A stretch of 64,000 nucleotides of DNA from an uncultured Candidatus Saccharibacteria bacterium (GTDB taxonomy: Bacteria; Patescibacteriota; Minisyncoccia; Phycocordibacterales; UBA9973): NCBI GenBank assembly GCA_964450735.1, contig CAYVDC010000001.1:69577-133576 (forward strand), written 5' to 3'. Made by a program: the position numbers and the translations under genes. This document shows, one piece after another, positions 17,301-63,526 of this stretch (positions within the stretch are counted from its first letter, which is position 1; each line of letters opens with the position of its first letter). The notes beneath the pieces are model-generated. The model did no database searches. It saw only the letters and a list, made by a program, of their open reading frames with translations, and was not told the DNA's origin.

Positions 17301-20300
17301 AGGATGGCAAGGAGCAGGTGGTGGATTTGAAGTGGGAATGAATGATGCTGCTACGGTGTTCTTCCAAATGTATAATAGAACATCAAATGCACCTATTGCT
17401 TCGAGTTGGTTAACAAGTGGAATAATTGTTAATGATAATAGTGGAGGAGGTATCACACCAAGTTCAACTCAATTATTAACAGCAAGAACTTACACCACTA
17501 CAAAAGTTCCGTTTACAGTGATAGGAGCTACGTCCCAAAGCGCAGATTTATTGCAAATACAAAATGCTTCTTCTATTGCGTTAGCAGTGTTTAATAAAGA
17601 TGGATATTTAGGACTTGGAACAACGATTCCAACTCATTCATTGAGTTTTGGGATGAGTGGCTATTCAGATACTAAAACAATAGCATGGCAAAATTCAAGT
17701 TCAACAAATAGAGCAGCATATATACAAGCTGTGGGTATTGGAAATTACACTCACTACTTAGCATTTGGTGTAAATACGACAACAGCAGATGTCAATGCTG
17801 TCGAAGTGATGAGAATTGGTACTGATGGTACAGTGGCTGTTGGTACAACTACGACAGGAGGTGCTAAATTCACAATAGCTAATACAGGTTCAGGTGAAGT
17901 TGGACTTCTTCTTTTGAAAAACAGTGGAGCAAATGGAGATTCAGGAAAAATTATATTTGGAACAACAGCAGGTGGAGCAAATGGGGCGGAAATAGTTTCT
18001 AAAAGAACAGCAGGTGATTTTTCTGTTGATTTGTTTTTTAGAACAACGGATTCGGGTGGAATTCAAAATGAAGTGTTAAGGATGACTTCTACAAAATATG
18101 TTGGGATAAATAATTCTTCTCCTTCATATACATTAGATGTTAGTGGCTCTGTCAGAATTCCAAATAACACTTCTATTTATGGAAATAACATTTCAGGAAC
18201 TCCTGTTTCTTTAATCTCAATAAATACCAATAATAGAATAGTGTTATCTCAAACAGGATACACTGTTACTTTTAGTAATTTATTATTTTCCGATAATTCA
18301 ACAGAAGCAAGAATTCAAGCAGGAAATAGTGGTGGAATCAGATTCATGGCTTCAAATGCTTCCGATTTAGGAAAAATGTTTGAAAATGGAAACTATTCAT
18401 GGGGAAGTATCGTAGATAGTGGATATAAATTTGATGTTAGTGGTTCAACCCGCATCACTTCTACATTAAGTGTAACGGGAAGTGTATTCCTTTCAGGAAT
18501 AGGAAATGTTACATCAGGTTCAATAAATATTTTAATTAGTAGTGGCAGTGATTATAAAGTAAATGCTCTTTCAAGTAGTCAATTTATTTCTAATTTAGGA
18601 ATTGTAAGTGGAAGTGGAACTGCTCGTTATTATTCAGTATTCTCATCATCAGGAGTGATTGGTAACGGTGGAATGTATGATAATGGGGTGGGAAGTGGTG
18701 TTGTTAGCATGGATTATAATATTCTATATCTTGGTAACACGGCTACAAATAACACATTAAACGTTAATAGAACAGGGGCTTCTCCATCATCAATAAGTGT
18801 AACTGCTGGGGTGGCGAATCCTTCTATTACATTTGTTAGTGGATATGGTCTTGGTGGAAGATTGAGTATAGGAAGTGCTTCATTAGAAATAATGTCATTT
18901 TGGGGAGATGGAAATGTTTCCATTAACAATGCTTCCAATGCAGGATATAAGTTAGATGTTTCGGGAAGTGGTAGATATATAGGTGACTTATTTATTTCAA
19001 GTTCAACAGCTTCAACAAGTGTCACGACAGGTGCTTTAACAATTAGAGGTGGGCTGGGGGTGAGTGGTTCAATATATGGTGGAACAACTCTATCTATTAT
19101 ATCTTCGGGAAGTGCTTCTGTTAATGGAGGAATATATGTTGGAACAGGGGCTACCTTCGCTTCAAATGCAGATAATTTATTGACAGTTAGAGGAACAGGT
19201 AATTCAGCATCTTCTTGGAAGGGAAGAATAACGGCTGGAGGTGATAATTATGCCTTTTTGATGGGGGAATTTAATTCACATGCTTGGTTAGGTGGACATA
19301 ATGCGGCTCTTAATGCTTGGGCAGATTTATACATTAATCCCGAAGCAAGTGGTGCGAAAAAAGTTTTTATAGGGGCAGTAAGCGCAAGAGAGAATGCTAT
19401 ATTAACAATAGATAATGCAACAGGATATAGCACGTTTAGTGGCTCTGTCTATGCTTCTGTTGGTGCTATATATGCAAAAGCAGGAGTAAATTTAACTTCA
19501 ACATCATCATATACATTTGACGGCTATGCAAATTATGGACATTATTTAGACCTTAATAGTGGATATATTCAATTTGTTGGAAATGGAACAAAAATAGGAG
19601 GATTTTATACAGGTGCTACTAAGGGGTTTGGATTTAATAACAGTTCAATTTTGGCTTGGAATGGTGCATCTGAAACTGCGCCTGATATTTCAATAGAAAG
19701 AGTTGCTACTAATACTATTTCAGTTGGCACTGCATTAGGTGGTTCTAATAATGGAACTTTATCTGCGGGGATGATTGGTGTTGCGACCATCTCTCCATCA
19801 TATTCATTAGATGTATCAGGAAGTGGTAGGTTTACAGGAAATTTAATAATAAGTGGTGGACTTACAGGGTCTTTATTTGGCAATGCTTCTACTGCAACGG
19901 TATTACAAAGTGCGAGAACTATTAACGGAACTTTATTTGATGGTTCTGCTAACATAACAATATCCATATCAGGAAGTGCCTTATTAGGAACAACTTTAGC
20001 TTCAAATATAGTCAGTAGTTCATTAACAACTTTAGGAACTATTGGTACAGGCTTATGGAATGCAACGAAGATAAGTGAAGTGTATGGGGGAACTAATCAA
20101 TCTACATATACTGTCGGTGATATGCTTTATTCAAGCGGAAGTAATACATTGAATAAATTGGCGATTGGTTCTTCGGCTCAAATGTTAATTGTAAATAGCG
20201 GCATTCCGTCTTGGCAAACTGTTAGTGGAGATATTACAATTACCAATGCAGGTGTAACGGCTATTGGTTCAAGCAAAGTTACTAATACAATGCTTTCTGG

Positions 20301-21453
20301 TTCTATTGCAAGTTCTAAATTAATTGGAACTGATATTACAACAATAGGAACGATAACATCAGGAACTTTAGGTACAGGAGCAGTAATAGCAGGTGTTACA
20401 ATAACATTGGGTTCTGATGCAAGTTATGATTTACATTATAGAAATAGTAGCGGTATCTTAACAAGATTGGCTAATGGAACGACAGGTCAAGTTTTAACCT
20501 CAACTACAAATGCCGCCCCTTCTTGGGCATTAGCTAATGCAGGATTGTTGACAGGGTTTGCGAGCGCAGCAGGAACATTGAGTGCATCGGATACTATATT
20601 ACAGGCAATCAGTAAATTAGATGGAAACTTAAATGCACAATCTATCACCGCTTATACTGCCACAGGTTCTAATAGTTACACAATGCCAACGGGAGCTAAG
20701 TCATTTATTATAGTTTGTGTAGGAGCAGGTGGAGGTGGAGGAAGTGGAAGGAAAGATGCCAATAACACCAATAGATATGGCGGAGGTGGAGGCGGTTCAG
20801 GTGCAATTAGTATTGTCCATATCAGAGCTACCGATGTAAGCGGAAGTACATTGACTTGTTCAGTAGGAGCAGGAGGTGGAGGTGGAGCAGCAAGGTCAAC
20901 CTCAGTTGATGGTGCAACAGGAACTGCTGGAGGTGATACTACTGTCACCAATAACTCCGTAACTATATGCAAGGCTTCTGGGGGTTCGGGTGGAATTGGT
21001 GGAACAAGTGCAGCAGGAACAGGTGGAGCAGGTGGCACTGTTGGAGATTTTGTTGGTCTATCGGGAGGTAGTAGTTCAGTTTCAGGAACTGCTGGCGCGG
21101 GGACAAGTTCAGTGAATAAAGTTGCAGGTGGAGGTGGAGCAGGTGGAGGTTCAGATTCATCCGAAAACTGGAGAAATGGTGGAGCAGGTGGTAGTGGTTA
21201 TTTTGGTTTAATTACAGGGGGGACAGGTGGTGTTGCTGCAACTTCATCTGGTACTAATGGAACTGCACCAAGTAATGCTCAATTAGTAGGCTCAGGTGGT
21301 GGTGGAGGAACATTAGGTTCAGGTACAACCACAGGAAAAAACGGAGCAAGAGGAGCAGGAGCAGGTGGAGGTTCTGCGGGTAACGCTACCACCAATTCAG
21401 GTGCAGGTGGCACAGGTGGAAATGGATACGTTTTAATATTTGCTTATTTTTAA
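14362..21453 (+). CDS. Giant tail fibre protein (2363 aa) with repeated modules and a Gly-rich C-terminus
   Basis: N-terminal IVQLKRNSVTGQIPTTSSLVMGELAMNTYDGRIFYKRSG fits the conserved phage tail-fibre N-terminal motif (QL+R...GEl..n.dG+l). At least 5 copies of (S/A)PSY(S/T)LDV(S/T)G.GR(F/Y) occur, each followed by TGALT(V/I).GGLG. The last ~250 aa are 50% Gly or more and end in GNGYVLIFAYF. Confidence 0.75.
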   Translation: MAQIVQLKRNSVTGQIPTTSSLVMGELAMNTYDGRIFYKRSGSVIAIESLLSPSINSSYPIWNTGSLYLSGSGIVIEGANTNLALKIKGSNTQGSGVGIQLENNYSTGKTYQIVSYDDGTFVLRDTSGNNFFYFSGSLSLVKDGGNVVIGGISNTSNSKLKVSGSAEFTSNVVIFGSLTTNIISTLLKTTSGGVITSSIAGVDYIAGGVGTTNYLPKFSGSGVLTNSGIYDNGTGVGVGTSVPLAPLHVKVTSSGITTNPLGSVGIIESSGDAYISIYSPTSREKGLIFGDNTSEYTGGIFYNSSGVTNGLNFRVNGNNTKLVITSAGNVGVNNSSPSYSLDVSGTGRFTGALTLTTPLSVSSGGTGTGSFYSSSLLIGNGTGSLIHSSNLIWDNVNGYLGINKNGGQLYSAIDVNGNIRIRKGDALWMPDSNDSIRVDDAPSWYSGNSNVFTFLGYAGTWIFRTSDSLRNVMIIDSNISNVLKVSGSISSSVDFYFGTTSVSASLALKNPLLSGSGFLKLTLGVPSYVTGSSVQFVKGDGTLDSSTIISGSGISNYIAKWNGNYLTSSLIYDDGTNVGVGTTSPLRKFHVEIGSNTYAFRIGVGGTNSIEMGNEGAAGNSVISFQGTNFFMGGNGGKGLGIGAGVVNANVPTTSSYTNIVGSLGINQSAPSYSLDVTGAGRFTSALKVDSTTASTSRSTGALIVSGGLGVGGAGYFGGSIIITGSGGYYAPNNTAFSFRNAANSAYLRAFTLASDDNLKIGEDSNISYILSNYIGLGTSAIWSKVTIGGGNVTLLNNIDIQGVVAANNTFLPIIKLNISDQVSIASGGAVTIFGGKVGLGVTATSVLHIKAGTAAANTAPIKLTAGTNLTSPESGSIEFDGTDLFFTPSSTRRTFAFLNGNQTFSGVTTFSNTTTSTSTTTGALTVAGGLGIVGTSYFGNTINSATSTSKKLSLNSTGSEQFLIANNFLRLQYDNGSATGWQGAGGGFEVGMNDAATVFFQMYNRTSNAPIASSWLTSGIIVNDNSGGGITPSSTQLLTARTYTTTKVPFTVIGATSQSADLLQIQNASSIALAVFNKDGYLGLGTTIPTHSLSFGMSGYSDTKTIAWQNSSSTNRAAYIQAVGIGNYTHYLAFGVNTTTADVNAVEVMRIGTDGTVAVGTTTTGGAKFTIANTGSGEVGLLLLKNSGANGDSGKIIFGTTAGGANGAEIVSKRTAGDFSVDLFFRTTDSGGIQNEVLRMTSTKYVGINNSSPSYTLDVSGSVRIPNNTSIYGNNISGTPVSLISINTNNRIVLSQTGYTVTFSNLLFSDNSTEARIQAGNSGGIRFMASNASDLGKMFENGNYSWGSIVDSGYKFDVSGSTRITSTLSVTGSVFLSGIGNVTSGSINILISSGSDYKVNALSSSQFISNLGIVSGSGTARYYSVFSSSGVIGNGGMYDNGVGSGVVSMDYNILYLGNTATNNTLNVNRTGASPSSISVTAGVANPSITFVSGYGLGGRLSIGSASLEIMSFWGDGNVSINNASNAGYKLDVSGSGRYIGDLFISSSTASTSVTTGALTIRGGLGVSGSIYGGTTLSIISSGSASVNGGIYVGTGATFASNADNLLTVRGTGNSASSWKGRITAGGDNYAFLMGEFNSHAWLGGHNAALNAWADLYINPEASGAKKVFIGAVSARENAILTIDNATGYSTFSGSVYASVGAIYAKAGVNLTSTSSYTFDGYANYGHYLDLNSGYIQFVGNGTKIGGFYTGATKGFGFNNSSILAWNGASETAPDISIERVATNTISVGTALGGSNNGTLSAGMIGVATISPSYSLDVSGSGRFTGNLIISGGLTGSLFGNASTATVLQSARTINGTLFDGSANITISISGSALLGTTLASNIVSSSLTTLGTIGTGLWNATKISEVYGGTNQSTYTVGDMLYSSGSNTLNKLAIGSSAQMLIVNSGIPSWQTVSGDITITNAGVTAIGSSKVTNTMLSGSIASSKLIGTDITTIGTITSGTLGTGAVIAGVTITLGSDASYDLHYRNSSGILTRLANGTTGQVLTSTTNAAPSWALANAGLLTGFASAAGTLSASDTILQAISKLDGNLNAQSITAYTATGSNSYTMPTGAKSFIIVCVGAGGGGGSGRKDANNTNRYGGGGGGSGAISIVHIRATDVSGSTLTCSVGAGGGGGAARSTSVDGATGTAGGDTTVTNNSVTICKASGGSGGIGGTSAAGTGGAGGTVGDFVGLSGGSSSVSGTAGAGTSSVNKVAGGGGAGGGSDSSENWRNGGAGGSGYFGLITGGTGGVAATSSGTNGTAPSNAQLVGSGGGGGTLGSGTTTGKNGARGAGAGGGSAGNATTNSGAGGTGGNGYVLIFAYF

Positions 21454-39021: not shown

Positions 39022-39319
39022 TTATTCAAATAGTAAGATATTAAAAACATCGGAGGGTAGGAGATATTATTCTACCCTTTTCTATCCTGAATTGATGGAT
39101 GGGGATGATAATTACTATGTCATCACTGAAAACGGGGATAGATTGGATAAGATGGCATATCAATTTTATAATGACGTTTCGTTATGGAGAATCATCGCTG
39201 CTAATAATCCACATATAAGAAAAGATAGACTCGCATTAGACGCAGGTATTCAATTGAAAATACCCATTGATGCTACAAGATATATAGATGAATTGAGATT
39301 TCTTAATAACAAACGATGA
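39014..39319 (+). CDS. LysM-like tail protein (P2 gpX-like)
   Basis: YYVITENGDRLDKMAYQFYNDVSLWRIIAANNPHIRKDRLALDAGIQLKIP fits the LysM pattern (Y.V..GDtL..IA..y......I...N......L..Gq.L.IP). Confidence 0.5.
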   Translation: MDNYSNSKILKTSEGRRYYSTLFYPELMDGDDNYYVITENGDRLDKMAYQFYNDVSLWRIIAANNPHIRKDRLALDAGIQLKIPIDATRYIDELRFLNNKR

Positions 39320-42015
39320 GTATATTTAAAAAGACATTTCATAAATTTGTTCAAAAACAAATAAAGCTACGCGAATCTATTTTTGGTGGAAGAGATAACC
39401 ATGATGATAATGCTATGGTTTATATGAACTCTAAAACAGCATGGGTGAGACTCACATCATCAGTTGATATTAAGAGTGAAAGATTGGCTAAATTATTAAA
39501 TGTATCTGTTGGGAACGAATTAGCTAAGAAGTTTGTATTACAATCGGGAACACTTCATTATAATAAGGACAAAAACACTTACGCACTTAGGTATGGGCTT
39601 GGTGATGGAGGTGGAGCTTACGGAGATAGTGAAATATATAGTAGAAATGAATTTGGACTAAGACCCATGCCCGGAATAACAGAGGTTTCTGTTCAATCAC
39701 AAGGGGCTTATGGTTCACTTAGAACTGCCACTGTTAATTTTAAATGTTGGACTAAGCAAGAATTGGATGCACTTGAATTATTGTATATGAGAAATGGATA
39801 TACAATGTTATTGGAATTCGGTTGGAGTTTATATTATGATAATGGAGGAAAATTAATAAACACTCCCTCCTATTATAACATTTTAGATAGTAAATTAGAA
39901 AAAGAACAAATATTCAATGATTTATATTCGGTGGCGGAAGAATATGTTGATGAAAAAGGAACTGTTGGAAGGGTGGAGAAGAGTTCAGGGAATTACGATG
40001 CACTCTTTGGATATGTAAAGAACTTTTCTCATAAGAGAAATTCATTTAATGGATACGATTGTTCTGTTGAAATTGTTACTATTGGGGAAGTTTTAAATTC
40101 TTTAAAGATAAATTATACATCAAAAGATACTCCTGAAAGAATAACTAATAACGGAGATATTTCATATGAATCTAAAAAATCATTCTATTCTTCCAAGTTA
40201 GTTGGTATATTAGATTATATTAAGAAACAAGAAAAGGATATACATGCCATTACATATATTAGTAGAGTAAATGATGGTAACGCCCCTCTCTACACATATT
40301 CAGATATTATAAAATTTAATTCTAATACAAATGATTCTTTTCAAACATTCATTAGAATAAAAGACTTGGTTAAAATATTGAATGAAAAGATATTACTATC
40401 AGATGGGGGTGGAAAACCGTTTGTTAAATTATCAACCAGAAGCGGAACTAAAAAAGGACAATTTCCATCTACTGAACAAATTAGTCCAAATTTATGTTAT
40501 GCTCATTATTTACAATTTTCAACAAATCCTTCCGTCTGTTTAATAAAACCATGTGATAATAAAAATCTTCTACCCGAATATTTGAAATATAAATTTTTAA
40601 ATGAAGATGTTTCGTTTTTAGAAATTGATAATAGTGAATATCATTATTTCCAATCCGACACTTATAGAAGGGGAGTGATAGAGAATATTTTTGTCAATAT
40701 CGACTTTATAAAGAAATGTTTGAAGTCTTCTGAAAAGAATAATACGGTGATGTTGGATGATTTTTTGAGAACTATGTTAAAGGGAATTCAAGAATCATTG
40801 GGGAATATAAATAATTTTGATTTAATTGTTGAACATAATACAGGAACGATTCAAATTGTTGATTTGAAATATTTAGAAGATGATAAATTCAATATTGAAA
40901 ATGATAGATTTGTTATAAATGTTTCGGGACTTTCTTCTATTGTTAGAGAAATGTCATTAGAATCTTCAATCTTTCCAAATCAATCCTCAATTATAAGCAT
41001 AGCCGCTTCCAATTTAAAAACATCAGGAGAAACAGGTGTTAATACAATGATGTTTGACACGATGAATGTTGGACTTGCAGATAGAATAATTCCTAATAAA
41101 TTAGAACCAAGTGTTTCAAAAAATAATAACAACGATGAAAATATAACACAAGTGGCGGCTAACATAGGACTATCCTCTGTAACAGCTTTGAGAGATTATG
41201 TCAGTAAATTGAACTCAAATTCTCCTTTCATTGTTGAAGAACTACCGCCAACAGAAGCATTAAATAATTTAATTTCATATGAAATAACATTACAAGATAG
41301 AATAAATGGAATAAAACATTATGCTTCTAAAGCAATTCTTCCATTAGTTCTTTCACTCACAGTGGAAGGAATAGCGGGGATTCAAATTGGTCAAATATTT
41401 AGACTTCCTATTTCTGAACTTCCTCTTTCATTTCAAGATTTTGAAAATTCATCATTTAAAACAGGATTCATCGTAACAAGAGTGGGGTCTCATATAAGAG
41501 GAAATGATTGGACTACTACCATTGAAGCACAAACTTGCATATTAGATGATTTTGAAAGAAAACCATCAAAGAAACAAAAAGTGGACAGAGCTATTATATT
41601 TGATTATGTTTCAGATTTAGAAGCGCAAACATCAAGTGGACAACTTTCTGAGCAATATCATCAGCAACAGCAGCTAATAGATGCTAATTCAGGGGCAGTG
41701 AATCTTAATTCAGTTCAATATCGAGAACAATTTGAAATAATTCAAAAATATATTGAGAGTATTAAGTTGTCTAATTCAACAATAGATAGTGCTGATGTGA
41801 CAGAATTTGTCACTTATTTGAATTCTCTTTCAAGAGATGAATATATTGGAATAAGCGAATACATTCAAAAAACAACAAGAAGAGCCACTTTGAAAGAATA
41901 CATCGGAATTGAAATAAATAATGATGTAAATTTAAAATGGAAGTTGGAATTTATAAAAACATCAGGTAACTTTGTAGCCACAAGAGAATATTTTGTCAGA
42001 GCAATAACAAAATAA
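39316..42015 (+). CDS. Large baseplate protein candidate (899 aa)
   Basis: Its position after the hub and LysM genes supports this call. No specific motif was recognised. Confidence 0.4.
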   Translation: MSIFKKTFHKFVQKQIKLRESIFGGRDNHDDNAMVYMNSKTAWVRLTSSVDIKSERLAKLLNVSVGNELAKKFVLQSGTLHYNKDKNTYALRYGLGDGGGAYGDSEIYSRNEFGLRPMPGITEVSVQSQGAYGSLRTATVNFKCWTKQELDALELLYMRNGYTMLLEFGWSLYYDNGGKLINTPSYYNILDSKLEKEQIFNDLYSVAEEYVDEKGTVGRVEKSSGNYDALFGYVKNFSHKRNSFNGYDCSVEIVTIGEVLNSLKINYTSKDTPERITNNGDISYESKKSFYSSKLVGILDYIKKQEKDIHAITYISRVNDGNAPLYTYSDIIKFNSNTNDSFQTFIRIKDLVKILNEKILLSDGGGKPFVKLSTRSGTKKGQFPSTEQISPNLCYAHYLQFSTNPSVCLIKPCDNKNLLPEYLKYKFLNEDVSFLEIDNSEYHYFQSDTYRRGVIENIFVNIDFIKKCLKSSEKNNTVMLDDFLRTMLKGIQESLGNINNFDLIVEHNTGTIQIVDLKYLEDDKFNIENDRFVINVSGLSSIVREMSLESSIFPNQSSIISIAASNLKTSGETGVNTMMFDTMNVGLADRIIPNKLEPSVSKNNNNDENITQVAANIGLSSVTALRDYVSKLNSNSPFIVEELPPTEALNNLISYEITLQDRINGIKHYASKAILPLVLSLTVEGIAGIQIGQIFRLPISELPLSFQDFENSSFKTGFIVTRVGSHIRGNDWTTTIEAQTCILDDFERKPSKKQKVDRAIIFDYVSDLEAQTSSGQLSEQYHQQQQLIDANSGAVNLNSVQYREQFEIIQKYIESIKLSNSTIDSADVTEFVTYLNSLSRDEYIGISEYIQKTTRRATLKEYIGIEINNDVNLKWKLEFIKTSGNFVATREYFVRAITK

Positions 42016-54883: not shown

Positions 54884-56005
54884 ATGGATAAATCTGCTAA
54901 GATAGTTTTAGGCACGATTTGGGGAGATGAAGGAAAAGGGAAAATGGTTAATTCTCTATCAAATTCATCTCCCAATCCAATTGTTATTCGCTTTAGTGGT
55001 GGACAACAAGCGGGACATTGTGTTATTGAAAATAATATAAAACATGTTTTTTCTTCATACGGAGCAGGAACATTACATGGAATTGAAACATATTTAACAG
55101 AAGATTGTACATTCTATCTTCCTTCTATTTTAATAGAAAATAAAGTGTTAAAGGAAAAGAATGTTTATGTTCCAAAATTAAAAATTCATCCATTAGCTAA
55201 AATTACCACTCCATACGATGTAGCCTATAATAGACTAATGAGTGGAAAAGGTTCAACTTGTGGACTTGGTGTAGGAGCTACGATGAAACGTCATTTAGAA
55301 ACTCCATATAAGCTCCATGCTATTGATTTGAAATATCCCTCTATTTTAAATGCTAAAATGGAGGAAATAAGAAAATACTATGAAGAAAAAATCATAGCAG
55401 AAACAAACTATTTTATTCGTGATTTTGTTGAATTATATCAAGATGAATTAACCGTGTTTTTTTGCGTTCTAAGCGACGTTCTCTCGTTGGTTGATATAAT
55501 TCCCTATTCATACTTAGAACGCTTCTCTACGTTGATATTTGAGGGGTCTCAGGGCATTCTATTAGATATGCACTTTGGTATTTTTCCAAATGTTACATTT
55601 GCGAACACTCATTCGATAAATGCTATTAAAATTTGCAAAGAATTGGGAATAGAAAATATTGAAACTTTTTATATTTCTCGTTGCTATTTAACAAGACATG
55701 GTAGGGGGTGGATGGGTAATGAAATTTTAGAATCTGAATTGAAAAACAATGACGAAGAAATCAATGTCTATAACAAATATCAAGGAGAATTTAGAGTGGG
55801 TACATTTGATTATGATTTACTAAATTATGCAATTGAAGTGGATAGAATTTTCAATCTTGATTCAAAGATGACTTTAGTAATTAATTGTTTAGACCAATTA
55901 GACGATTTTACATTAGATGAATCCAAGTTAAAGTTTCAGTTTAATAACATTTTATTGGGGGATAGTCCAAATACATTTTTAAATTTATATGAAAAAGCAA
56001 TTTGA
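54884..56005 (+). CDS. Adenylosuccinate synthetase family protein, short form (PurA-like; PurZ candidate)
   Basis: GTIWGDEGKGKMV matches PurA GTQWGDEGKGKIV; FSGGQQAGHCV matches YQGGHNAGHTL; FEGSQGILLDMHFG matches FEGAQGTLLDIDHG; NCLDQLDD matches TKLDVLDG. At 373 aa it is closer to archaeal PurA and phage PurZ lengths than to bacterial PurA (~430 aa). The IMP-site GTTGRGIGP is replaced by GSTCGLGVG, and TTGRRRRTGW by LTRHGRGWM. Confidence 0.8.
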   Translation: MDKSAKIVLGTIWGDEGKGKMVNSLSNSSPNPIVIRFSGGQQAGHCVIENNIKHVFSSYGAGTLHGIETYLTEDCTFYLPSILIENKVLKEKNVYVPKLKIHPLAKITTPYDVAYNRLMSGKGSTCGLGVGATMKRHLETPYKLHAIDLKYPSILNAKMEEIRKYYEEKIIAETNYFIRDFVELYQDELTVFFCVLSDVLSLVDIIPYSYLERFSTLIFEGSQGILLDMHFGIFPNVTFANTHSINAIKICKELGIENIETFYISRCYLTRHGRGWMGNEILESELKNNDEEINVYNKYQGEFRVGTFDYDLLNYAIEVDRIFNLDSKMTLVINCLDQLDDFTLDESKLKFQFNNILLGDSPNTFLNLYEKAI

Positions 56006-56177
56006 ATTACAGAAAGACGTTAATTTTTTTGGAAGAATGATTCCAAAAGGAACAATTTACACAGAGTTGGGGAATAGAGATTTATATCAACCACAATTCA
56101 ATGGTTCTAAACATCCCAACTTAGAACTTAGTTTCATGGTTGTTCTTGCAAATGAAGAATATTTTAAACAAATCTAA
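55989..56177 (+). CDS. Possible small ORF between purA-like and the methyltransferase
   Basis: A 62-aa ORF filling a 180-nt gap. Confidence 0.25.
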   Translation: MKKQFELQKDVNFFGRMIPKGTIYTELGNRDLYQPQFNGSKHPNLELSFMVVLANEEYFKQI

Positions 56178-56187
56178 TCGTTTAATT

Positions 56188-57027
56188 ATGACTATTTTTG
56201 GTATATGTGATGGTATTTCTTGTGGACAATTGGCTTTAGAAAGAGCAAATATTAATTATGATGTCTATTATGCTTCTGAAATTGATAAATTTGCTATTGG
56301 TAACACTCAACAAAAATTTCCAAATACAATTCAATTAGGGGATGTTGGTGAAATAGATGGAAAAGGTCTTCCTAAAATAGACCTGCTTCTTGGAGGTACA
56401 CCCTGTCAATCATTTAGCAATGCTGGACTTGGTGGTGGATTTCGAGGGAAAAGTGGATTGTTTTGGGAATATGTTAGGCTTTTAGAGGAAACTTCTCCTA
56501 CTTATTTTCTTTTAGAGAATGTAAGGATGAAAAAAGAATGGAAAAATATTATTTCTAATGCTCTTGGGGTAGAACCCATCTCGATTAATTCATCCACAGT
56601 TTCGGCTCAAAATAGACCAAGACTATATTGGACAAATATTCCAAATGTTTCTGTTCCATTTGATAGGGGGATTATGTTAAAAGATATTATTGAAAAGGAT
56701 GTTGAGTTTAAATTTCCAAGTGAGAGAAGAATTGGCTACACTGTTGGGAGAATGAATAAAGGATTTAGTAAAGGAATCATTTACGATTTGAATGTAAAAG
56801 CTCCATGTTTAACAGCCCAAATGTATAAAGCTCTTAACAATCATATCATTTTAGACCCAAATATTAATAAAATAAGATTTCTATCTCCTGTTGAGGCTGA
56901 ACGTCTCAAAACAATTCCTGATAATTATACGGATACAATGAGTGCCACTCAACGCTATAAATCATTAGGAAATGGTTGGACAGTGGACGTGATTTCACAT
57001 ATTCTTTCCTTTATACCCAATTTATGA
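56188..57027 (+). CDS. DNA (cytosine-5)-methyltransferase (orphan, no cognate nuclease seen)
   Basis: Motif I-like IFGICDGISCG, motif IV GGTPCQSFSNAG (PCQ) and motif VI LLENV are all present. The ORF track starts at 56140; ATG 56188 places motif I at the N-terminus, as in C5-MTases. Confidence 0.75.
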   Translation: MTIFGICDGISCGQLALERANINYDVYYASEIDKFAIGNTQQKFPNTIQLGDVGEIDGKGLPKIDLLLGGTPCQSFSNAGLGGGFRGKSGLFWEYVRLLEETSPTYFLLENVRMKKEWKNIISNALGVEPISINSSTVSAQNRPRLYWTNIPNVSVPFDRGIMLKDIIEKDVEFKFPSERRIGYTVGRMNKGFSKGIIYDLNVKAPCLTAQMYKALNNHIILDPNINKIRFLSPVEAERLKTIPDNYTDTMSATQRYKSLGNGWTVDVISHILSFIPNL

Positions 57028-57719
57028 AAAAAGATGTATTGAGAAAACTTCTTTCTAAATATTATTTAGGGGGGAGAATAGAAGAGAACACAATAATTGT
57101 AAATGAAAATGGTGTTCTTATTCCATTTCACACAGATGATGTTCAAATGGGGGGAATTATTTCCTATCCACAAAAACTATTTTCTCAAAATCTTCCCATT
57201 TATAATACAGGATTTTTCCTAAAAAACATTAATCTCCTTTCAGATGAAGTTGAAGTTGAATACAAAGATAATTTCATTAACGTTAGTGATGATAAGTTCT
57301 TAGTTCAAATTCAATTAGCTGATGGAGAATCTATCAATAGTTATGAAAGTATGCTTGCTTATAAAGAGGAAGAATATATCTTTAACTTTGATATTGATGA
57401 ATTCTTTATTAAAGATTTTCTATCCATGTGTGACATTTATAAATCATTAAAAGATAATAATTTTTCAATAAAGAATAAGAAGAGAGAAATATCTTTCACT
57501 TTTGGGGACTATTCAAAGATAAGTTTTAAAAAGAATATTGAAACAAATATTGTTAGAAGTTTTGAAAATCATTATAAAAGTGATATATTTGCAGATATTT
57601 TAAGAGTAAATAAAGAATTTGATAGTGGACGTTTCTTTATGTCCGAAAATACAATCAAACTCAATTTCATTTCAGAAAACATTAATTCAACCTATTATAT
57701 TGTTAAACAAGATGTATAG
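57024..57719 (+). CDS. gp45: Sliding clamp, T4 gp45-like
   Basis: A ~230-aa two-domain layout. FTFGDYSKISFKKNIETNIV aligns with T4 gp45 LTLGDYDGENTFNFIINMANM. ATG 57024 overlaps the MTase stop (ATGA). Confidence 0.65.
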   Translation: MKKDVLRKLLSKYYLGGRIEENTIIVNENGVLIPFHTDDVQMGGIISYPQKLFSQNLPIYNTGFFLKNINLLSDEVEVEYKDNFINVSDDKFLVQIQLADGESINSYESMLAYKEEEYIFNFDIDEFFIKDFLSMCDIYKSLKDNNFSIKNKKREISFTFGDYSKISFKKNIETNIVRSFENHYKSDIFADILRVNKEFDSGRFFMSENTIKLNFISENINSTYYIVKQDV

Positions 57720-58005
57720 TATTAAACCAATGAATGATAAGGTGGTGTTAGTTGAAAAACAATTAAACACACAAACGTATGGAGCTATTGTTAGACCTGA
57801 TATGGGAAAAGAAAAACCTATTGTTGGACAGGTTGTACAAACTAATGATGGATATTATTTAGGAGATAATTTTGTGAATTCTTCTGTTAGTGTTGGTGAT
57901 TTAGTTCTTATCCCTTTATTTGGTACAGTGAAAACAGTGATAGATAAGCAGGAATATTTAATTTGTGCTGAAAATAACATTCTTGGAAAACTAATTGAGC
58001 AATGA
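57711..58005 (+). CDS. groES: Co-chaperonin GroES / T4 gp31-like
   Basis: MYSIKPMNDKVVLV matches GroES MNIRPLHDRVIV. It is ~98 aa with a mobile-loop region followed by a beta-barrel (VGDLVLIP...EYLICAENNILGKL). Confidence 0.75.
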
Positions 58006-58346
58006 TATATAATGTTCTTTTGTCGGATTTAAAAAAGTTTTCAGATGTTGATTTAGAAAAAGTTCAAGAATCAATATCTCGAATCACATATCCTTTATTT
58101 GGAGAATTGGGACATTCTTCTAAACCAACCATCAATCTAAATAATGTTTCACATGAAATCAAAAATGTTAGAATTGAAAATGATAAAGTTTATGGAGACA
58201 TTCTTTTTACAAAAAATAATGGAAAGAGGGCTTCTGAATATTATGAAAAGGGAATAGCTAAGTTTGAAATGAGAGATGTAATATTCATTCAAAACGATAA
58301 ATGTGTAACAGAGATAATTTCATTTGATTTAGTAAACAAACAATAA
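58002..58346 (+). CDS. Hypothetical protein between groES and groEL
   Basis: 114 aa. Confidence 0.4.
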   Translation: MIYNVLLSDLKKFSDVDLEKVQESISRITYPLFGELGHSSKPTINLNNVSHEIKNVRIENDKVYGDILFTKNNGKRASEYYEKGIAKFEMRDVIFIQNDKCVTEIISFDLVNKQ

Positions 58347-58349
58347 TTT

Positions 58350-59981
58350 ATGAAAAAAGACGTAGTATTTTCAGGAGCAGGTCGTAAGAGATTATTCTCA
58401 GGAATTGAAAAAGTGAGTAGAAGTGTTATTTCTACAATGGGAGTTGGTGGAAGGAATGTTGTATTTAAAGATGAATATGGAAATTTACGTTCCACCAAAG
58501 ATGGAGTGACAGTTGCTAAAAATCTTTCTAATTTAAAAGACCCTGTTGAAAATTTTGGAGCAATGTTGATTAAACAGGCTTCTGTTAAAACAGCAGAGCA
58601 AGCAGGTGATGGGACAACCACTTCTACATTATTAGCCTATCATCTTATTTCCAAATCTCTTAATCATCTCGATACAGGAGCTAATTCTGTTGAACTAAAA
58701 AATGGAATTGAATTTGGAGCATCGGAAATTATAAAGGCTCTTTCTGAAATTAAAACAGAAATCAATTCTTCTGAACAGATTAAACAAGTGGCTACACTTT
58801 CTGCTAATGGGGATGAAACCATTGGTGATTTGATTACAGAGGGAATTAACTATGTAGGGGCTGATGGAATCGTCGTTGTTGAGGAATCAAAGACAGGAGA
58901 GACTAAGTTAGAAAAGGTGGAAGGAATTCAGTTTGATAGGGGATATAAATCCCACTATTTTGTTACAGACCAAAGTAAAATGACATGTGATTTTAGCGAT
59001 GCTTACATTTTAATGGTGGATGAACGTATTTCATCAGCAAATGACCTTCTTCCTATATTAGAATTCATTTCATCTGAACAAAAACCATTAGTTGTTGTGG
59101 CAGAAGAAGTGGAAGGAGAGGCAATTGCCACATTAATTGTTAATCATAGCAGAGGAATAATCAAAGCATGTGCTATTAAAGCTCCTGAATTTGGTGATAG
59201 AAGAACATTATTTTTGGAAGATTTAGCCATTATTACAGGAGGAAAAGTATTTAATAAGAATAAAGGACTTCCTCTTTCCGATTTCGACCCACAATTATTG
59301 GGGAAATGTAGGACAATTAATGTAAAAGCATCAAAAACCACAATTGTAGATGGTGCAGGAGATTCAGAAGAAATCAAATCTCGCATTTTAGATATTAAAT
59401 CACAGATTGATTCATGTGAATCCAATTACGAAAAAGAGAAATTACAACAACGTCTTGGTAAATTAGTCGGAGGTGTTGCTATTGTTTCCATTGGTGGACG
59501 AACAGATGTCGAGATAAAGGAACGTAAAGACAGAGCAGAAGATGCGTTATACGCCACATATGCGGCTATTGAAGAGGGAATATTAGTTGGAGGAGGATGT
59601 TCTTTTATGAAAGCTCTAACAACAATAAATAACACAGCTATAATTTCCGATAATATGTCTGATTCGTATTGGACAGGATTTAAGATTCTTCTATCATCTG
59701 TAAAAGAACCTTTCTTTCAAATTTTAAGAAATGCAGGATATGGAGAATCAGATATTTACGGCTATGTGCCTTCAATCTCGAATGGAGATTCTTCAATTGT
59801 AAATCCTCTCAGTGGAGAAGTGGTTGATGCGTTTGAATTAGGTGTAATTGACCCATTCAAAGTGACACGTACAGCATTGGAAAATGCAGTGTCGGTAGCA
59901 GGTACTGTTATCCTAACAGAATGCGTAATCTTTGACGAAGATGAAGAAAAACAAGAACCATCTCCTTATAACTTTCAATAG
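58350..59981 (+). CDS. groEL: Chaperonin GroEL (Hsp60) homolog
   Basis: TKDGVTVAKNL, AGDGTTTSTLLA and GGG motifs are present. At 543 aa it is collinear with bacterial GroEL, but the C-terminus is acidic (DEDEEKQEPSPYNFQ) instead of GGM repeats. Confidence 0.95.
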   Translation: MKKDVVFSGAGRKRLFSGIEKVSRSVISTMGVGGRNVVFKDEYGNLRSTKDGVTVAKNLSNLKDPVENFGAMLIKQASVKTAEQAGDGTTTSTLLAYHLISKSLNHLDTGANSVELKNGIEFGASEIIKALSEIKTEINSSEQIKQVATLSANGDETIGDLITEGINYVGADGIVVVEESKTGETKLEKVEGIQFDRGYKSHYFVTDQSKMTCDFSDAYILMVDERISSANDLLPILEFISSEQKPLVVVAEEVEGEAIATLIVNHSRGIIKACAIKAPEFGDRRTLFLEDLAIITGGKVFNKNKGLPLSDFDPQLLGKCRTINVKASKTTIVDGAGDSEEIKSRILDIKSQIDSCESNYEKEKLQQRLGKLVGGVAIVSIGGRTDVEIKERKDRAEDALYATYAAIEEGILVGGGCSFMKALTTINNTAIISDNMSDSYWTGFKILLSSVKEPFFQILRNAGYGESDIYGYVPSISNGDSSIVNPLSGEVVDAFELGVIDPFKVTRTALENAVSVAGTVILTECVIFDEDEEKQEPSPYNFQ

Positions 59982-60152: not shown

Positions 60153-60422
60153 ATGGCAAAAAAGAAACAAGTGACATTAGAATCCTTTGAAGAAAAGGTT
60201 GAACCATTAGTGGTGGAAGAAGAAATTGATGATATTGTTGTCATTGCATCAGAAGCGATAAATAAGATTTATCAAATCAAAACTATTGAGCGATGGAAAT
60301 TGAACAATGCTGTTGATTTAGTTTCACAGGGAAGAAATGATGAGGCTGTTAAATTGTTAATGCAAATTCAAACAATTGATAGAAATCTTCTTAGTGAAAT
60401 CATTAATCTCCTTAATAAATGA
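60153..60422 (+). CDS. Hypothetical protein upstream of the clamp loader (gp62-position ORF)
   Basis: 89 aa, overlapping the clamp-loader start. Confidence 0.35.
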   Translation: MAKKKQVTLESFEEKVEPLVVEEEIDDIVVIASEAINKIYQIKTIERWKLNNAVDLVSQGRNDEAVKLLMQIQTIDRNLLSEIINLLNK

Positions 60423-61318
60423 AAACTCTTTGGGTAGAGAAATACAGACCCAACAATATTGAGGAATACTTATGTAATGAAGAATTTAAAAATAACATTT
60501 TAAAGAAATTCATTGATGAACAAAGTATTCCTCATATTATTTTACATGGGTCTGCTGGACAAGGTAAAACGAGTTTGGCTAAAATATTAATCAAAGAATT
60601 AAATGCCACTCATTTATATATTAATGCAAGTGAGGAAAATGGAATAAATGTAATTAGAGAAAGGGTGAAAGAATTTGCTAAATCTTCTTCCCTATCTCCA
60701 ATTAAAATCGTCTTCTTCGATGAAGGAGATAGACTTTCAGCAGAAGCCCAAGATAGCTTAAAGAACATGATGGAATCTTATTCTAACAAAACAAGATTCA
60801 TTTTCACAACAAATAAGCTACATGGATTCATCGAACCCATCATCAGTAGATGTGCTGTTTTTGAAATAAAAGCACCTTCTAAAAGAGAAGTGGCTAAAAG
60901 AATGGTGCAGATTTCCAAATCAGAAAATATATTGCTATCAATGGACACGTTAGCAATGATTGTTAATGATAACTATCCCGATATTAGAAGATGTATTGAT
61001 GAGATGGAAGTGAACATTAAAGATGGTAGATGTATATATGTTAATAAATCTTTAAAATTTATTGATAATTTATTTGAAATTATTGATAAAAGTGTTAATT
61101 TTGCTTTGAAATTCAAAGAAATCAAAGACTTGATATATCAACAAGATTTTAATTACAACCATCTTTATTCAGAGTTATTTGATAAGTTGGAAAGTAAGGA
61201 TAAATTGGAAATGTCAATCCTTATTGTCGGAGAATATTCATATTACAATTCAGTAGTGATGGATAAGAGAATCAATTTTTTAACTTGTATAACTAAATTA
61301 ATTAATTTATGGAATTAA
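60419..61318 (+). CDS. gp44: Clamp loader AAA+ subunit, gp44/RFC-small-subunit-like
   Basis: LWVEKYRPNNIEE (RFC box II KYRP); Walker A LHGSAGQGKTS; Walker B IVFFDEGD; SRC motif IISRCAVFE. Confidence 0.85.
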   Translation: MKTLWVEKYRPNNIEEYLCNEEFKNNILKKFIDEQSIPHIILHGSAGQGKTSLAKILIKELNATHLYINASEENGINVIRERVKEFAKSSSLSPIKIVFFDEGDRLSAEAQDSLKNMMESYSNKTRFIFTTNKLHGFIEPIISRCAVFEIKAPSKREVAKRMVQISKSENILLSMDTLAMIVNDNYPDIRRCIDEMEVNIKDGRCIYVNKSLKFIDNLFEIIDKSVNFALKFKEIKDLIYQQDFNYNHLYSELFDKLESKDKLEMSILIVGEYSYYNSVVMDKRINFLTCITKLINLWN

Positions 61319-61548
61319 ATAAGGGAAAAGTGACAGTGGATTTGAGGAAACATTCTAAACCAATGAAATGTCAAGCTATTGTGGATGGAATTAAATGCGA
61401 GAACACCACATTCATTCAAGGAGCGATGTTTAATAAAGTGTCTAAGTTTATAACAGGAAACCCACAAGATACCATTCTATCCATTCCTGTTTTTTTATGT
61501 ACAAAATGTAACACTCCTCTCAAAGAATTTCTTCCAGAAGATGTTTAA
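61309..61548 (+). CDS. Hypothetical small Cys-containing protein (possible clamp-loader accessory)
   Basis: 79 aa with CQAIVDGIKC...CTKC. Confidence 0.35.
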   Translation: MELNKGKVTVDLRKHSKPMKCQAIVDGIKCENTTFIQGAMFNKVSKFITGNPQDTILSIPVFLCTKCNTPLKEFLPEDV

Positions 61549-61846
61549 ATTTATTGACTATTTAACAAAGGAGAAGAAAAAATGGAAGAATTTAACAGAA
61601 GAAGAAAAGAATGAATATTCACCTTTTGTTATTAATTCTTTTCTTTCCAACTCAGAAGAATTAGTTGAAATAATAAATTTCCTTAACATCTATTATAAGA
61701 TTCCAAAAAAAGAACATTATAATTTCTTATTGAAAACCCTTCCTAAAAAGAAAATGTTTATTGGCTTTTCTAAAAAAGAAAAGAAAATTGATAAAGTTGA
61801 AACTAATTCTAAATCAATTCAGTTTATAAAGAAAAAGAAAAAATGA
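61541..61846 (+). CDS. Hypothetical Lys-rich small protein
   Basis: 101 aa. Confidence 0.35.
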   Translation: MFKFIDYLTKEKKKWKNLTEEEKNEYSPFVINSFLSNSEELVEIINFLNIYYKIPKKEHYNFLLKTLPKKKMFIGFSKKEKKIDKVETNSKSIQFIKKKKK

Positions 61847-63084
61847 ATTTAATAGGAATCGCGGGGAAAGCCCAAGCTGGAAAAAACTTAACAGCATCTA
61901 TTATTCAAAAATTAACATCTCCTCATTACAATGATGTTGATATAGATTGGAATAATCTATCGAAATATAATTTTACTAATAGCGAATGGGAACAAAAATG
62001 TTTTGCAGATAAGCTGAAAGACATAGTTTGTATTTTGATTGGATGTACTCGCAAACAATTAGAAGATGGAGCATTTAAAGAAACTGAATTAGGAGAAGAA
62101 TGGTGGATATATGATGTCAATGAATTTCAACAACCATATGAAGAAGGAGATTGTGAACCTATACCTGTTATAAAATTAACACCAAGAAAATTATTACAAA
62201 CTATTGGTACTGATTTATTTAGAAATAGGTTACATCCTGATATTTGGTGTAACTCTCTTTTTTCAGATTACAATGAGGATACTGAAAAATGGATAGATGT
62301 TGTAAATTATGAAGGTAGTTATCAAATTTCTTCTTTTGGTAGAATAAAAAGTTTAGATAGAAAAATAGTTTATGGAGAAGGTATTGGTCAATATCATACT
62401 AAAAAAAGTCAATTTTTAAAACCTACTCTAAGTGGTGGATATGAAACAGTATCTTTAAGTGGTAAAACTTTTACTCTACATTCTTTAGTAGCTAAACATT
62501 TTGTAAAAGGTTATCAAGAAGGGTTTGTTGTAAATCACATTGATTACAATAAAACAAATAATTTTTATAAAAATCTTGAGTGGATAACCCAAGAAGATAA
62601 TATAAAACATAATAAAACTACTCTTAGGGGTAATTTTGGAGAATCTCAAAAAGATGCTAAATTAGATTCTGATAAAGTATTAGCAATAAAAAAACTTATT
62701 GAATATAATACTTTATCTCAAAATAAAATAGCAAAATTATTTAATGTTTCTCCAACTACAATTTCAGGTATTAAAAAAGGTAAAAAGTGGAATCATGTAG
62801 GTAAAGATATTGATAAAATAGAACCTATATTACCTGTATTTGCACCTAAATGGATTATCACAGATGTTCGATTTCCAAACGAGTGTAAGAAAATAAAAGA
62901 AAAAGGTGGAATTATAATTAATGTGGTGAGAAATCATTCTATTAATAAAAATGAACATGTCTCAGAAAGAATGTTAGATGGATATAGTTTCGATTACCAA
63001 ATAAATAATTTTGGAACGATTGAAGAATTGGTTAAACTTGTAAAAGAAATTTTGATTAAAGAAAATATTTTAGAAAATGATTGA
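61843..63084 (+). CDS. gp1: dNMP kinase (T4 gp1-like) with an in-frame NUMOD4-HNH-HTH homing-endonuclease domain insertion
   Basis: N-terminal MNLIGIAGKAQAGKNLTA matches T4 gp1 MKLIFLSGVKRSGKDTTA; LLQTIGTDLFRNRLHPDIW matches LMQALGTDLIVNNFDRMYW; C-terminal WIITDVRFPNE...GGIIINVVR...FGTIEEL matches YYIVPDTRQDHE...GATVIHVVR...DGSLEEL. Between them (aa ~146-335, nt ~62280-62850) lie a NUMOD4-like box (EGSYQISSFGRIKS), an HNH box (HSLVAKHFVKGYQEGFVVNHIDYNKTNNFYKNLEW) and an IENR/NUMOD1-like HTH (LSQNKIAKLFNVSPTTISGI). Confidence 0.75.
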   Translation: MNLIGIAGKAQAGKNLTASIIQKLTSPHYNDVDIDWNNLSKYNFTNSEWEQKCFADKLKDIVCILIGCTRKQLEDGAFKETELGEEWWIYDVNEFQQPYEEGDCEPIPVIKLTPRKLLQTIGTDLFRNRLHPDIWCNSLFSDYNEDTEKWIDVVNYEGSYQISSFGRIKSLDRKIVYGEGIGQYHTKKSQFLKPTLSGGYETVSLSGKTFTLHSLVAKHFVKGYQEGFVVNHIDYNKTNNFYKNLEWITQEDNIKHNKTTLRGNFGESQKDAKLDSDKVLAIKKLIEYNTLSQNKIAKLFNVSPTTISGIKKGKKWNHVGKDIDKIEPILPVFAPKWIITDVRFPNECKKIKEKGGIIINVVRNHSINKNEHVSERMLDGYSFDYQINNFGTIEELVKLVKEILIKENILEND

Positions 63085-63526
63085 AAAAATAAAACATTGG
63101 AGAGAAGTTTTTGGACTTCCTAACAGAACAGTTCCGCAAATACCCAGTGATAAAGAAATGGCTTTGTCTTTTAAATTGATTCTTGAAGAAACAGAGGAAT
63201 TGAAATTAGCTATTGAAAACTATTCTCTGAATGACATTGCTGACGCAATAGGTGATTTATACTTCGTAGTTACGCAGATGGCTATGGTGTGTGGATTAGA
63301 CCCAAAAGAACTTGTTGAAAAGGTCTATGATTCCAATATGAGTAAACTCTGTTTAACAATAGAAGAATCGTTAGATAGTGTCTTTGAATATAAAAGAAAA
63401 GGAATAGATGTTTATGCTGAAAAATTCAATGAATATTATATTTTGAAAAGACTAAGTGATGGTAAAGTATTGAAATCTATTAACTTCAAAGAACCAAATT
63501 GGAATTATGATAATGATAGGCAGTAA
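63077..63526 (+). CDS. MazG-like all-alpha nucleoside triphosphate pyrophosphohydrolase (T4 gp56 dCTPase-like or MazZ-like)
   Basis: LILEETEELKLAIEN...DAIGDLYFVVTQMAMVCGLDP fits the MazG/HisE EExxE...DxxxD metal-binding helices. Size is 149 aa. Confidence 0.55.
   Translation: MIEKIKHWREVFGLPNRTVPQIPSDKEMALSFKLILEETEELKLAIENYSLNDIADAIGDLYFVVTQMAMVCGLDPKELVEKVYDSNMSKLCLTIEESLDSVFEYKRKGIDVYAEKFNEYYILKRLSDGKVLKSINFKEPNWNYDNDRQ

Follow-up and report, generated by a model that had tools for sequence, protein, structure and literature searches.

Complete GroES–GroEL pairs of phages have been described in aquatic viromes, in which GroES was also present on 133 of 337 GroEL-bearing contigs and a 'GroES>GroEL' viral clade was recognized, with some operons 'separated by a short ORF', e.g. 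in Cellulophaga phage phi38:1 (Marine et al. 2017; PMC5649160). In this clade, the mobile-loop glycine of GroES is replaced by Asn or Ser, and in 23% of viral co-chaperonins, the second or third residue of the hydrophobic tripeptide is polar or charged; the full viral complex was proposed to fold the major capsid protein of large phages (PMC5649160). A paper from 2024 describes the 155-190 kb 'immuto and related' phages, in which the neighbourhoods of the regular DNA polymerase (family A, B or C) all encode GroEL/GroES family chaperonins (PMC11348598). The subject of the present analysis is a groES–groEL pair in a 64,000-nucleotide stretch of contig CAYVDC010000001.1 (assembly GCA_964450735.1; the whole stretch is hereafter called the window), which represents a T4-like myovirus with a Gp23-family capsid protein, a tail sheath, a tail tube, and baseplate parts. 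The locus very probably encodes a functional phage group I chaperonin, i.e. a GroEL with its cognate GroES, that is co-transcribed within a T4-type replication module and has long been inherited in a clade of ~150-185 kb phages including Flavobacterium phage immuto.

In immuto (vB_FspM_immuto), a 'co-chaperonin GroES' and a 'chaperonin groEL' are annotated side by side after the DNA polymerase. The window locus shares with immuto and the virioplankton GroES>GroEL group a groES gene followed by groEL in a large phage genome, a GroEL that belongs to a phage-specific clade apart from cellular sequences, the replacement of the residue equivalent to Escherichia coli G24 (Ala in the window and Asn or Ser in the relatives), and the proximity to DNA polymerase and other replication genes, and a short ORF splitting the operon has likewise been described before. 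It differs from the immuto group in that its GroEL is only 47% identical to that of immuto and 51-53% identical to those of the metagenomic clade, with one close relative known (85%), and in that its sub-lineage lacks a GGMGGMF-type tail and carries unique substitutions at P33, K327, and E386. In addition, L27 of GroES is replaced by Arg, the insert between the two genes encodes a gp21-fold protein, and the 'regular' polymerase is PolB, whereas immuto shows the order PolA, GroES, GroEL. The gene content itself adds little, complete phage GroES–GroEL operons having been published and being common in aquatic viromes; the window is a diverged member of a known phage lineage. A tblastn search with the window GroEL matched 270 phage records, with Vibrio (88), Flavobacterium (73), and Cellulophaga (9) among the named ones; a few of the 270 look like host contamination. 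Together with the immuto pair, the virome contigs, and the 2024 paper (PMC11348598), these records do not bear out the statement of an earlier sequence-only reading of this DNA that self-sufficient chaperonins are rare and known from a few jumbo phages. Phage EL, which was named there as the example, is of little use as a parallel, since its chaperonin functions with no co-chaperonin (PMC5649160).

The GroEL homologues of phages EL (gp146), OBP (gp246), and AR9 (gp228) are reported to show single-ring or ring-separating behaviour (PMC7185714, PMC9598537, PMC5934643). They act without a co-chaperonin and were proposed as a separate chaperonin group (PMC9598537), whereas the window GroEL passes a bacterial equivalog model and is paired with a GroES. 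Phage T4, with gp31, and phage RB49, with CocO, resemble the window phage in being T4-like myoviruses with a Gp23-family capsid protein and a phage co-chaperonin that presumably serves capsid folding. However, the roof hairpin is absent in gp31 and CocO (PMC5649160) and present in the window protein, and the window phage also supplies its own GroEL. The window thus offers a well-resolved T4-like case with a Gp23-family capsid gene in which a full chaperonin from an old lineage of viruses lies in the replication module instead of a gp31 working with host GroEL.

The 543-aa GroEL scored 589.7 bits against the TIGR02348 equivalog (cut-off 582.1, a narrow pass), 591.5 bits against NF000592 (cut-off 397), and 195.9 bits against PF00118 (E 1.5e-57; cut-off 34.3), and it matched phrog_5725 at E 3.4e-145. 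It is co-linear from end to end with the three-domain E. coli GroEL (1AON; residues 3-530 to 3-523, 416 bits), and its best match in the PDB is a reconstructed ancestral chaperonin of the Fibrobacteres-Chlorobi-Bacteroidetes (FCB) group (494 bits). Residues were compared in an alignment of the window GroEL with E. coli GroEL, 34 other cellular and 18 other phage GroELs; the E. coli sequence was verified by residue identity at numbered positions. T30, G32, K51, D52, G53, G86-T91 (GDGTTT), S151, D398, G414-416, N479, and D495 are the same as in E. coli, and among these, K51, D52, the GDGTTT motif, D398, G414-416, and D495 are the same in 35 of the 35 cellular sequences. Both ATPase residues whose loss would have counted against a working GroEL, D87 and D398, are therefore retained, and the exceptions near the nucleotide pocket are P33V, K34G, and A480P. 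In the apical domain, seven residues that bind GroES or substrates are identical (Y199, S201, Y203, F204, L234, L237, and V264) and two show conservative changes (L259I and V263I). Overall, the phage protein is 39-48% identical to its bacterial counterparts, and its gene follows groES as in bacterial groESL operons.

The product of groES matches the Pfam Cpn10 family (PF00166) over positions 2-92 of 93 (E 1.6e-16, 60.5 bits; cut-off 21.1) and the PHROG annotated as 'co-chaperonin GroES' (phrog_3188). Solved GroES/Hsp10 structures matched it at E 1e-11 to 6e-7, with Thermus thermophilus GroES as the best (E 1.2e-11), and no gp31 structure was among the PDB matches at E <= 0.001. The protein has the Cpn10 fold with both a mobile loop and a roof beta-hairpin. 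The latter is full-length, being one residue shorter than that of E. coli (DGYYLGDNFVNSS), whereas the roof of the sampled Bacteroidota GroES is five residues shorter. The mobile loop, YGAIVRPD, is divergent; when it is anchored on the conserved Pro-Asp, G24 is replaced by Ala and L27 by Arg, giving a tripeptide IVR where bacterial GroES has IVL or III. A word-indexed homology search with GroES returned only the protein itself and one orthologue of 88-89% identity, and the orthologue (88%) has both replacements. The designation 'GroES/gp31 homolog' of the sequence-only reading thus holds as to a GroES-type co-chaperonin and is loose as to gp31. A gp31-type identity was rejected given the roof hairpin, the PDB matches, and the assignment to phrog_3188.

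The groES gene, a 114-aa ORF (ORF114), and groEL form a head-to-tail trio on the plus strand between a probable gp45-like clamp gene and a gp44-like clamp-loader gene, which agrees with the description of a GroES-like and a full-length GroEL gene 'beside the clamp genes'; both genes are real, intact, and functional-looking. The start of groES had been placed at 57711, one base upstream of its ATG at 57712. GroEL had been located 350 nt downstream of GroES; the interval is in fact 344 nt long and is not an intergenic spacer, being occupied by ORF114, whose ATG overlaps the stop codon of groES (ATGA) and which ends 3 nt before the ATG of groEL. Start and stop codons abut or overlap all along the clamp gene, groES, ORF114, and groEL. 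Promoter-like and terminator-like sites were no more frequent between positions 53000 and 62000 than in shuffled sequence. Three other assemblies, derived from separate sequencing runs, encode exactly this 543-aa GroEL protein, with 99.74-100% nucleotide identity over the shared region, and thus the ORF is not an assembly artefact; the disruption on resequencing that had been named as a possible outcome was not found. Both groES and groEL are clearly under strong purifying selection, as the approximate dN/dS against the 85% relative (L006) is 0.074 in groES and 0.076 in groEL, the clamp-loader gene having a value of 0.048. A pseudogene reading of either gene was rejected because of the intact ORFs, purifying selection, and retained catalytic residues.

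A phylogenetic comparison had been suggested as the way to tell a recent host capture from a long phage lineage. Below the 85% relative, the next 118 GroEL homologues among the matches listed are 50-53% identical, and in these 118, the N-terminus is of a non-bacterial type (MSKVIEFG... or MNKKIEFG...) and the Gly/Met tail is short or missing. The three homologues inspected are encoded on contigs of 150-174 kb that resemble phage genomes and carry phage replication genes. The best cellular GroELs, among the matches listed in a scan of one genome per GTDB species, are 44-48% identical and derive mostly from Bacteroidota, with Helicobacter GroEL (46%) as close as that of Flavobacteriales. An alignment of 55 sequences (529 columns) was used for a neighbour-joining tree based on Kimura distances, with 200 bootstrap replicates. 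In this tree, the window sequence grouped with P0002 on a long branch (200/200), the metagenomic phage clade including the window was recovered in 192 of the 200 replicates, and this clade together with immuto in 200/200; the whole group is phage-only, and the Bacteroidota GroELs cluster elsewhere. The deeper nodes, which bear on the cellular group from which the phage pair was derived, have low support. The order of genes for PolB, a ~240-aa clamp-like ORF, Cpn10, Cpn60, and an AAA clamp loader is the same in the window and in the related loci L006, L008, L009, and L010, and both the N-terminal motif and the tail of GroEL are unlike those of all 79 cellular sequences. The pair represents an old viral lineage rather than a recent copy of a host operon because of the phage-only clade, the conserved synteny, the low identity to sampled cellular GroELs (48% at most), and the full-length GroES roof.

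Several observations weigh against the reading of the locus as a functional chaperonin of an old phage lineage. GroES falls under the cut-offs of all 14 NCBIfam GroES models (the top score being 59.3 bits against 96 for NF001531) and is very diverged, with 29-41% identity to every other GroES except its 88%-identical orthologue. Its tripeptide I-V-R has Arg at position 27, where a change to Ala or Asp abolishes GroEL binding in E. coli (PMC5575113); in the E. coli loop, Gly is followed by three hydrophobic residues (G24-I25-V26-L27). In GroEL, substitutions are present at 14 of the columns with a conservation of at least 98% in 198 other sequences, compared with zero to six in other clade members, and these changes could reflect an altered or partly impaired function. 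dS between the window and L006 is 1.1-1.4 and near saturation, which makes the dN/dS values approximate; the GroEL tree was built by neighbour-joining alone, from a cellular sample that consists of the matches listed and is not a census. As to the client, the capsid gene of the window could encode a gp24-type vertex protein rather than a major capsid protein. No expression, assembly or folding data for this GroEL or its clade were found in the literature.

The alternative that survives best, and which we still regard as improbable, is that the two proteins are uncoupled, the phage GroEL being lid-free like EL gp146 and the phage GroES serving the host GroEL as T4 gp31 does. It draws on the existence of lid-independent phage chaperonins (EL, cited in PMC5649160; also PMC7185714 and PMC9598537), on the atypical mobile loop, and on the finding that most often in viromes, a phage carries a co-chaperonin and no GroEL (PMC5649160). 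However, the two genes stay next to each other and are inherited together throughout the clade, also where ORFs are inserted between them, GroEL retains the apical residues used for GroES binding in E. coli, and it is a canonical group I chaperonin that passes TIGR02348 and whose Pfam, NCBIfam, and PDB matches are of the bacterial type; L27R would, if it has any effect, be expected to reduce binding to an ordinary host GroEL.

Even less probable is a decaying copy, a chaperonin that has lost its function, as its long branch and its substitutions at universally conserved sites would then indicate. The 14 substitutions, including P33V in the nucleotide pocket, K327A, E386D, and G477I, would fit such decay, and P33, K327, and E386 are invariant in 198 of the 198 other sequences and changed in the window sub-lineage. 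All 14 are, however, common to the window and its 85% relative and have thus been maintained through considerable divergence. The Arg at position 27 of GroES and the loss of the GGM tail could be counted on the same side, but E. coli GroEL can do without its C-terminal tail, all catalytic residues are kept, the ORFs are intact in independent assemblies, and dN/dS is ~0.075 in both genes, similar to that of the clamp loader. The weakest alternative, that the phage recently took over a host groESL and so raises the chaperonin dosage during infection, is very unlikely, since, against the mostly Bacteroidota origin of the closest cellular GroELs listed, the ancestral FCB-group chaperonin as best PDB match, and the occurrence of independent captures in other phages, e.g. 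Bacteroides phage DAC16, stand the identity of at most 48% to all sampled cellular GroELs with Helicobacter level with Flavobacteriales, the phage-only clade with 100% bootstrap, the conserved synteny of the replication module, the roof that is longer than in Bacteroidota, and the N-terminal motif and tail that differ from 79/79 cellular sequences. In DAC16 (L002:5724-7623), GroEL nests among Bacteroidota GroELs and therefore represents an independent, more recent capture; an 87-aa ORF directly upstream of it aligns as GroES, and both are annotated as hypothetical proteins.

If the locus is a functional phage chaperonin, the established GroEL/GroES mechanism would have heptameric GroEL rings bind non-native phage proteins via their apical hydrophobic surface, after which ATP binding and capping by the phage GroES would enclose the client for folding, and hydrolysis, with D398 and D52 as key residues, would time its release. 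By analogy with T4 gp23, gp31, and GroEL, the main client is probably the Gp23-family capsid protein, perhaps with other large virion proteins, and a GroES and GroEL of its own may free the phage from the specificity and supply of the host chaperonin. Because the phage is T4-like and has a Gp23-family capsid gene, this analogy for a capsid-folding role is a reasonable one. The self-sufficiency proposed in the sequence-only reading is in line with both genes being intact, and the capsid role that it suggested is plausible on the same analogy.

The C-terminal tail of GroEL after the conserved TEC is VIFDEDEEKQEPSPYNFQ, with a net charge of -5 and without Gly/Met repeats, as had been noticed from the sequence together with the GDGTTT signature. 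All sampled cellular GroELs have G/M-rich C-termini, and most relatives in the phage clade keep a short GGMGGMF-type motif, which the window sub-lineage has lost. At the inter-ring contacts, on which the double-ring tetradecamer rests, the window GroEL has N105, T109, F452, G461, and D464 in place of E. coli K105, A109, R452, E461, and V464, and it keeps S463. In 79 cellular GroELs, the canonical residues predominate (K/R105 in 79, A109 in 76, R/K452 in 76, E/D461 in 79, and V/I464 in 79). The 121 phage-clade members compared differ in this respect: Arg never occurs at 452, where 62 have Glu and 37 have Met; at 461, 86 have Thr, 25 have Ser, and 5 have Glu as in E. coli; 114 have Asp or Glu at 464, and 115 have Asn or Lys at 109. 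An extra two to three residues follow position 464 in the phage clade. The canonical inter-ring contacts have thus been replaced across the whole clade, including the window and immuto. The engineered single-ring variant SR1 of GroEL (R452E/E461A/S463A/V464A) is altered at positions that coincide with those replaced in the phage clade (Glu at 452 in 62/121 and Asp/Glu at 464 in 114/121).

In E. coli GroEL, the salt bridges K327-D83 and E386-R197 stabilize the closed, low-affinity state. The window GroEL has Glu at residue 83, and with K327A, the counterpart of the D83-K327 bridge cannot form. A shifted allosteric equilibrium is a reasonable inference from K327A and E386D. Taken together, the inter-ring changes, the loss of K327, and the L27R change in GroES point to an altered communication between rings and to a co-adapted, possibly weaker GroEL–GroES contact. 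According to one study, L27A or L27D in E. coli GroES abolishes GroEL binding, and a single-ring GroEL is functional only when its contact with GroES is weakened (PMC5575113); the window GroES is charged at position 27. Tentatively, and with considerable doubt, the phage clade might be a natural single-ring or ring-separating GroEL–GroES machine, a viral counterpart of mitochondrial Hsp60/Hsp10. Were it so, the window sub-lineage would be tuned further, K327A removing a lysine of the closed state and L27R weakening the lid so that it could leave without a signal from a second ring. Alternatively, the new residues may build another ring–ring interface that still works. The virioplankton chaperonin paper (PMC5649160) does not mention a change at the inter-ring interface, the word 'ring' occurring zero times in it. 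The analysis yields a concrete structural prediction, namely an altered or absent inter-ring interface with a co-adapted lid. If this is borne out, the clade would be a natural model for the change from a double-ring to a single-ring chaperonin. It could also yield compact, self-contained folding machines for biotechnology.

ORF114, which lies between groES and groEL, had no match in Pfam or NCBIfam, and a word-indexed homology search found only the protein itself. An exhaustive representative search revealed a family of 53 cluster representatives, mostly 115-160 aa in length; its members are free-standing phage proteins of ~120 aa. In hhalign, a profile of 32 of them covered residues 8-130 of the prohead protease (gp21-type) from Tenacibaculum phage PTm1 (probability 98.6%, E 7e-16), and 27 of the 32 matched phrog_207, 'head maturation protease'. 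The AlphaFold2 (AF2) model of ORF114 has a pLDDT of 92.9, and in Foldseek, the capsid assembly protease gp21 of T4 (5JBL) ranked first (probability 1.00, TMq 0.67-0.69), ahead of herpesvirus assemblins. The nearly invariant columns of the family are G34, E35, H51, G74, R91, and D109; it has this conserved His and no conserved Ser, which makes a Ser-His protease mechanism unlikely, and ORF114 is probably not a serine protease. The 85% relative L006 lacks ORF114, its GroES and GroEL being 49 nt apart, and the closest ORF114 homologue sits among the ribonucleotide reductase genes of another phage, unlinked to chaperonins. In L009 (6807-9614), two unrelated ORFs, a Metallophos_2-like one of 192 aa and one of 77 aa, are present between Cpn10 and Cpn60, and the junction thus takes up insertions repeatedly. 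On these grounds, a chaperonin-specific accessory role was rejected, and ORF114 is read not as part of the chaperonin but as an accessory gene that is mobile and came to lie in a permissive junction.

Table 1. Chaperonin locus and other features of the window (coordinates from the first base of the 64,000-nt stretch)
Feature	Coordinates	Strand	Length	Basis or remark
groES-like co-chaperonin gene	57712..58005	+	97 aa	Pfam Cpn10, phrog_3188
ORF114, miniature gp21/assemblin-fold protein	58002..58346	+	114 aa	hhalign, AF2, Foldseek
groEL gene	58350..59981	+	543 aa	TIGR02348, NF000592, PF00118
Probable gp45-like sliding clamp	57024..57719	+	231 aa	Stop overlaps groES start
gp44-like clamp-loader large subunit, 3' of groEL	60419..61318	+		phrog_168 E 7e-71; Pfam AAA, DNA_pol3_delta2, Gp44_lid
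Possible gp62-like clamp-loader small subunit	61541..61846	+		Pfam Phage_clamp_A E 2.2e-4, under cut-off
Gp23-family (gp23/gp24-type) capsid gene	20..1108	+		PF07068 E 1.5e-56; phrog_138 major head protein E 1.1e-48
HNH homing-endonuclease gene	1814..2383	+		phrog_3339 E 1.6e-57
ORF in tail/baseplate region	14362..21453	+	2363 aa	No PHROG match at E <= 1e-5
ORF with a homologue in immuto	39316..42015	+	899 aa	No Pfam/PHROG match
Divergent adenylosuccinate-synthetase-family gene	54884..56005	+		Pfam E 6.6e-42
62-aa ORF and C5 cytosine DNA methylase gene	55989..57027	+		PF00145 E 3.6e-38 (methylase)
ORF with dNMP-kinase-like termini	61843..63084	+	413 aa	P-loop N- and C-termini; NUMOD4/HNH_3 homing-endonuclease module mid-protein (Pfam)
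MazG/PRA-PH-like pyrophosphohydrolase gene	63077..63526	+

The ORF upstream of groES (Table 1) probably encodes a gp45-like sliding clamp. No match was obtained when its single sequence was searched against the PDB, whereas a profile of five orthologues weakly matched RB69 gp45 (E 0.0095, the best) and T4 gp45 (E 0.084), the alignments being co-linear and of equal length, and the match to phrog_223 is also weak (E 9.5e-5). The position of this ORF is kept in L006, L008, L009, and L010. The clamp-loader gene is located 3' of Cpn60 in all related loci examined, and a Phage_clamp_A gene is also present in the corresponding place of L009.

The other replication genes of the window encode a gp32-like single-stranded DNA-binding protein (SSB), a UvsX-like recombinase, a DnaB-like helicase, and a family B DNA polymerase, the last of which shares no more than 35% identity with the polymerase of any cultured phage. 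A megablast search with 14 kb of the window gave no match among cultured phages, and the phage thus has no close cultured relative. The identical GroEL protein has been recorded from a contig of 184.7 kb, a size that fits the 155-190 kb immuto group. A pattern scan of viral contigs with a single GroEL protein found no relative, the patterns being too specific, and Pfam gave no match for four large and three small ORFs without an assigned function, so that a divPolA1 homologue was not located in that way. The 899-aa ORF has homologues among cultured phages in immuto alone, where the gene is annotated as 'carboxypeptidase' and is 33% identical over the first 265 residues, which points to kinship with the immuto group at the genome level.

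The 62-aa ORF and the methylase gene are located between the purA-like gene and the clamp gene. Both are missing from L006, in which the purA-like gene abuts the clamp gene, and the cassette represents a recent indel. The adenylosuccinate-synthetase-family gene scores under the NCBIfam cut-offs for PurA (123 versus 402 bits) and PurZ (39 versus 300), and the pyrophosphohydrolase gene follows 7 kb downstream; the two may belong to a PurZ-type 2-aminoadenine pathway or serve another purine-related function. The 413-aa ORF may have arisen by in-frame insertion of an endonuclease into a kinase gene, and L006 has other genes at its position. The HNH homing-endonuclease gene listed in Table 1 lies ~700 nt 3' of the capsid gene, with one 205-aa ORF between them. 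The 2363-aa ORF of the tail/baseplate region is followed by a 1492-aa protein with tail-fibre-like matches in its C-terminal part.

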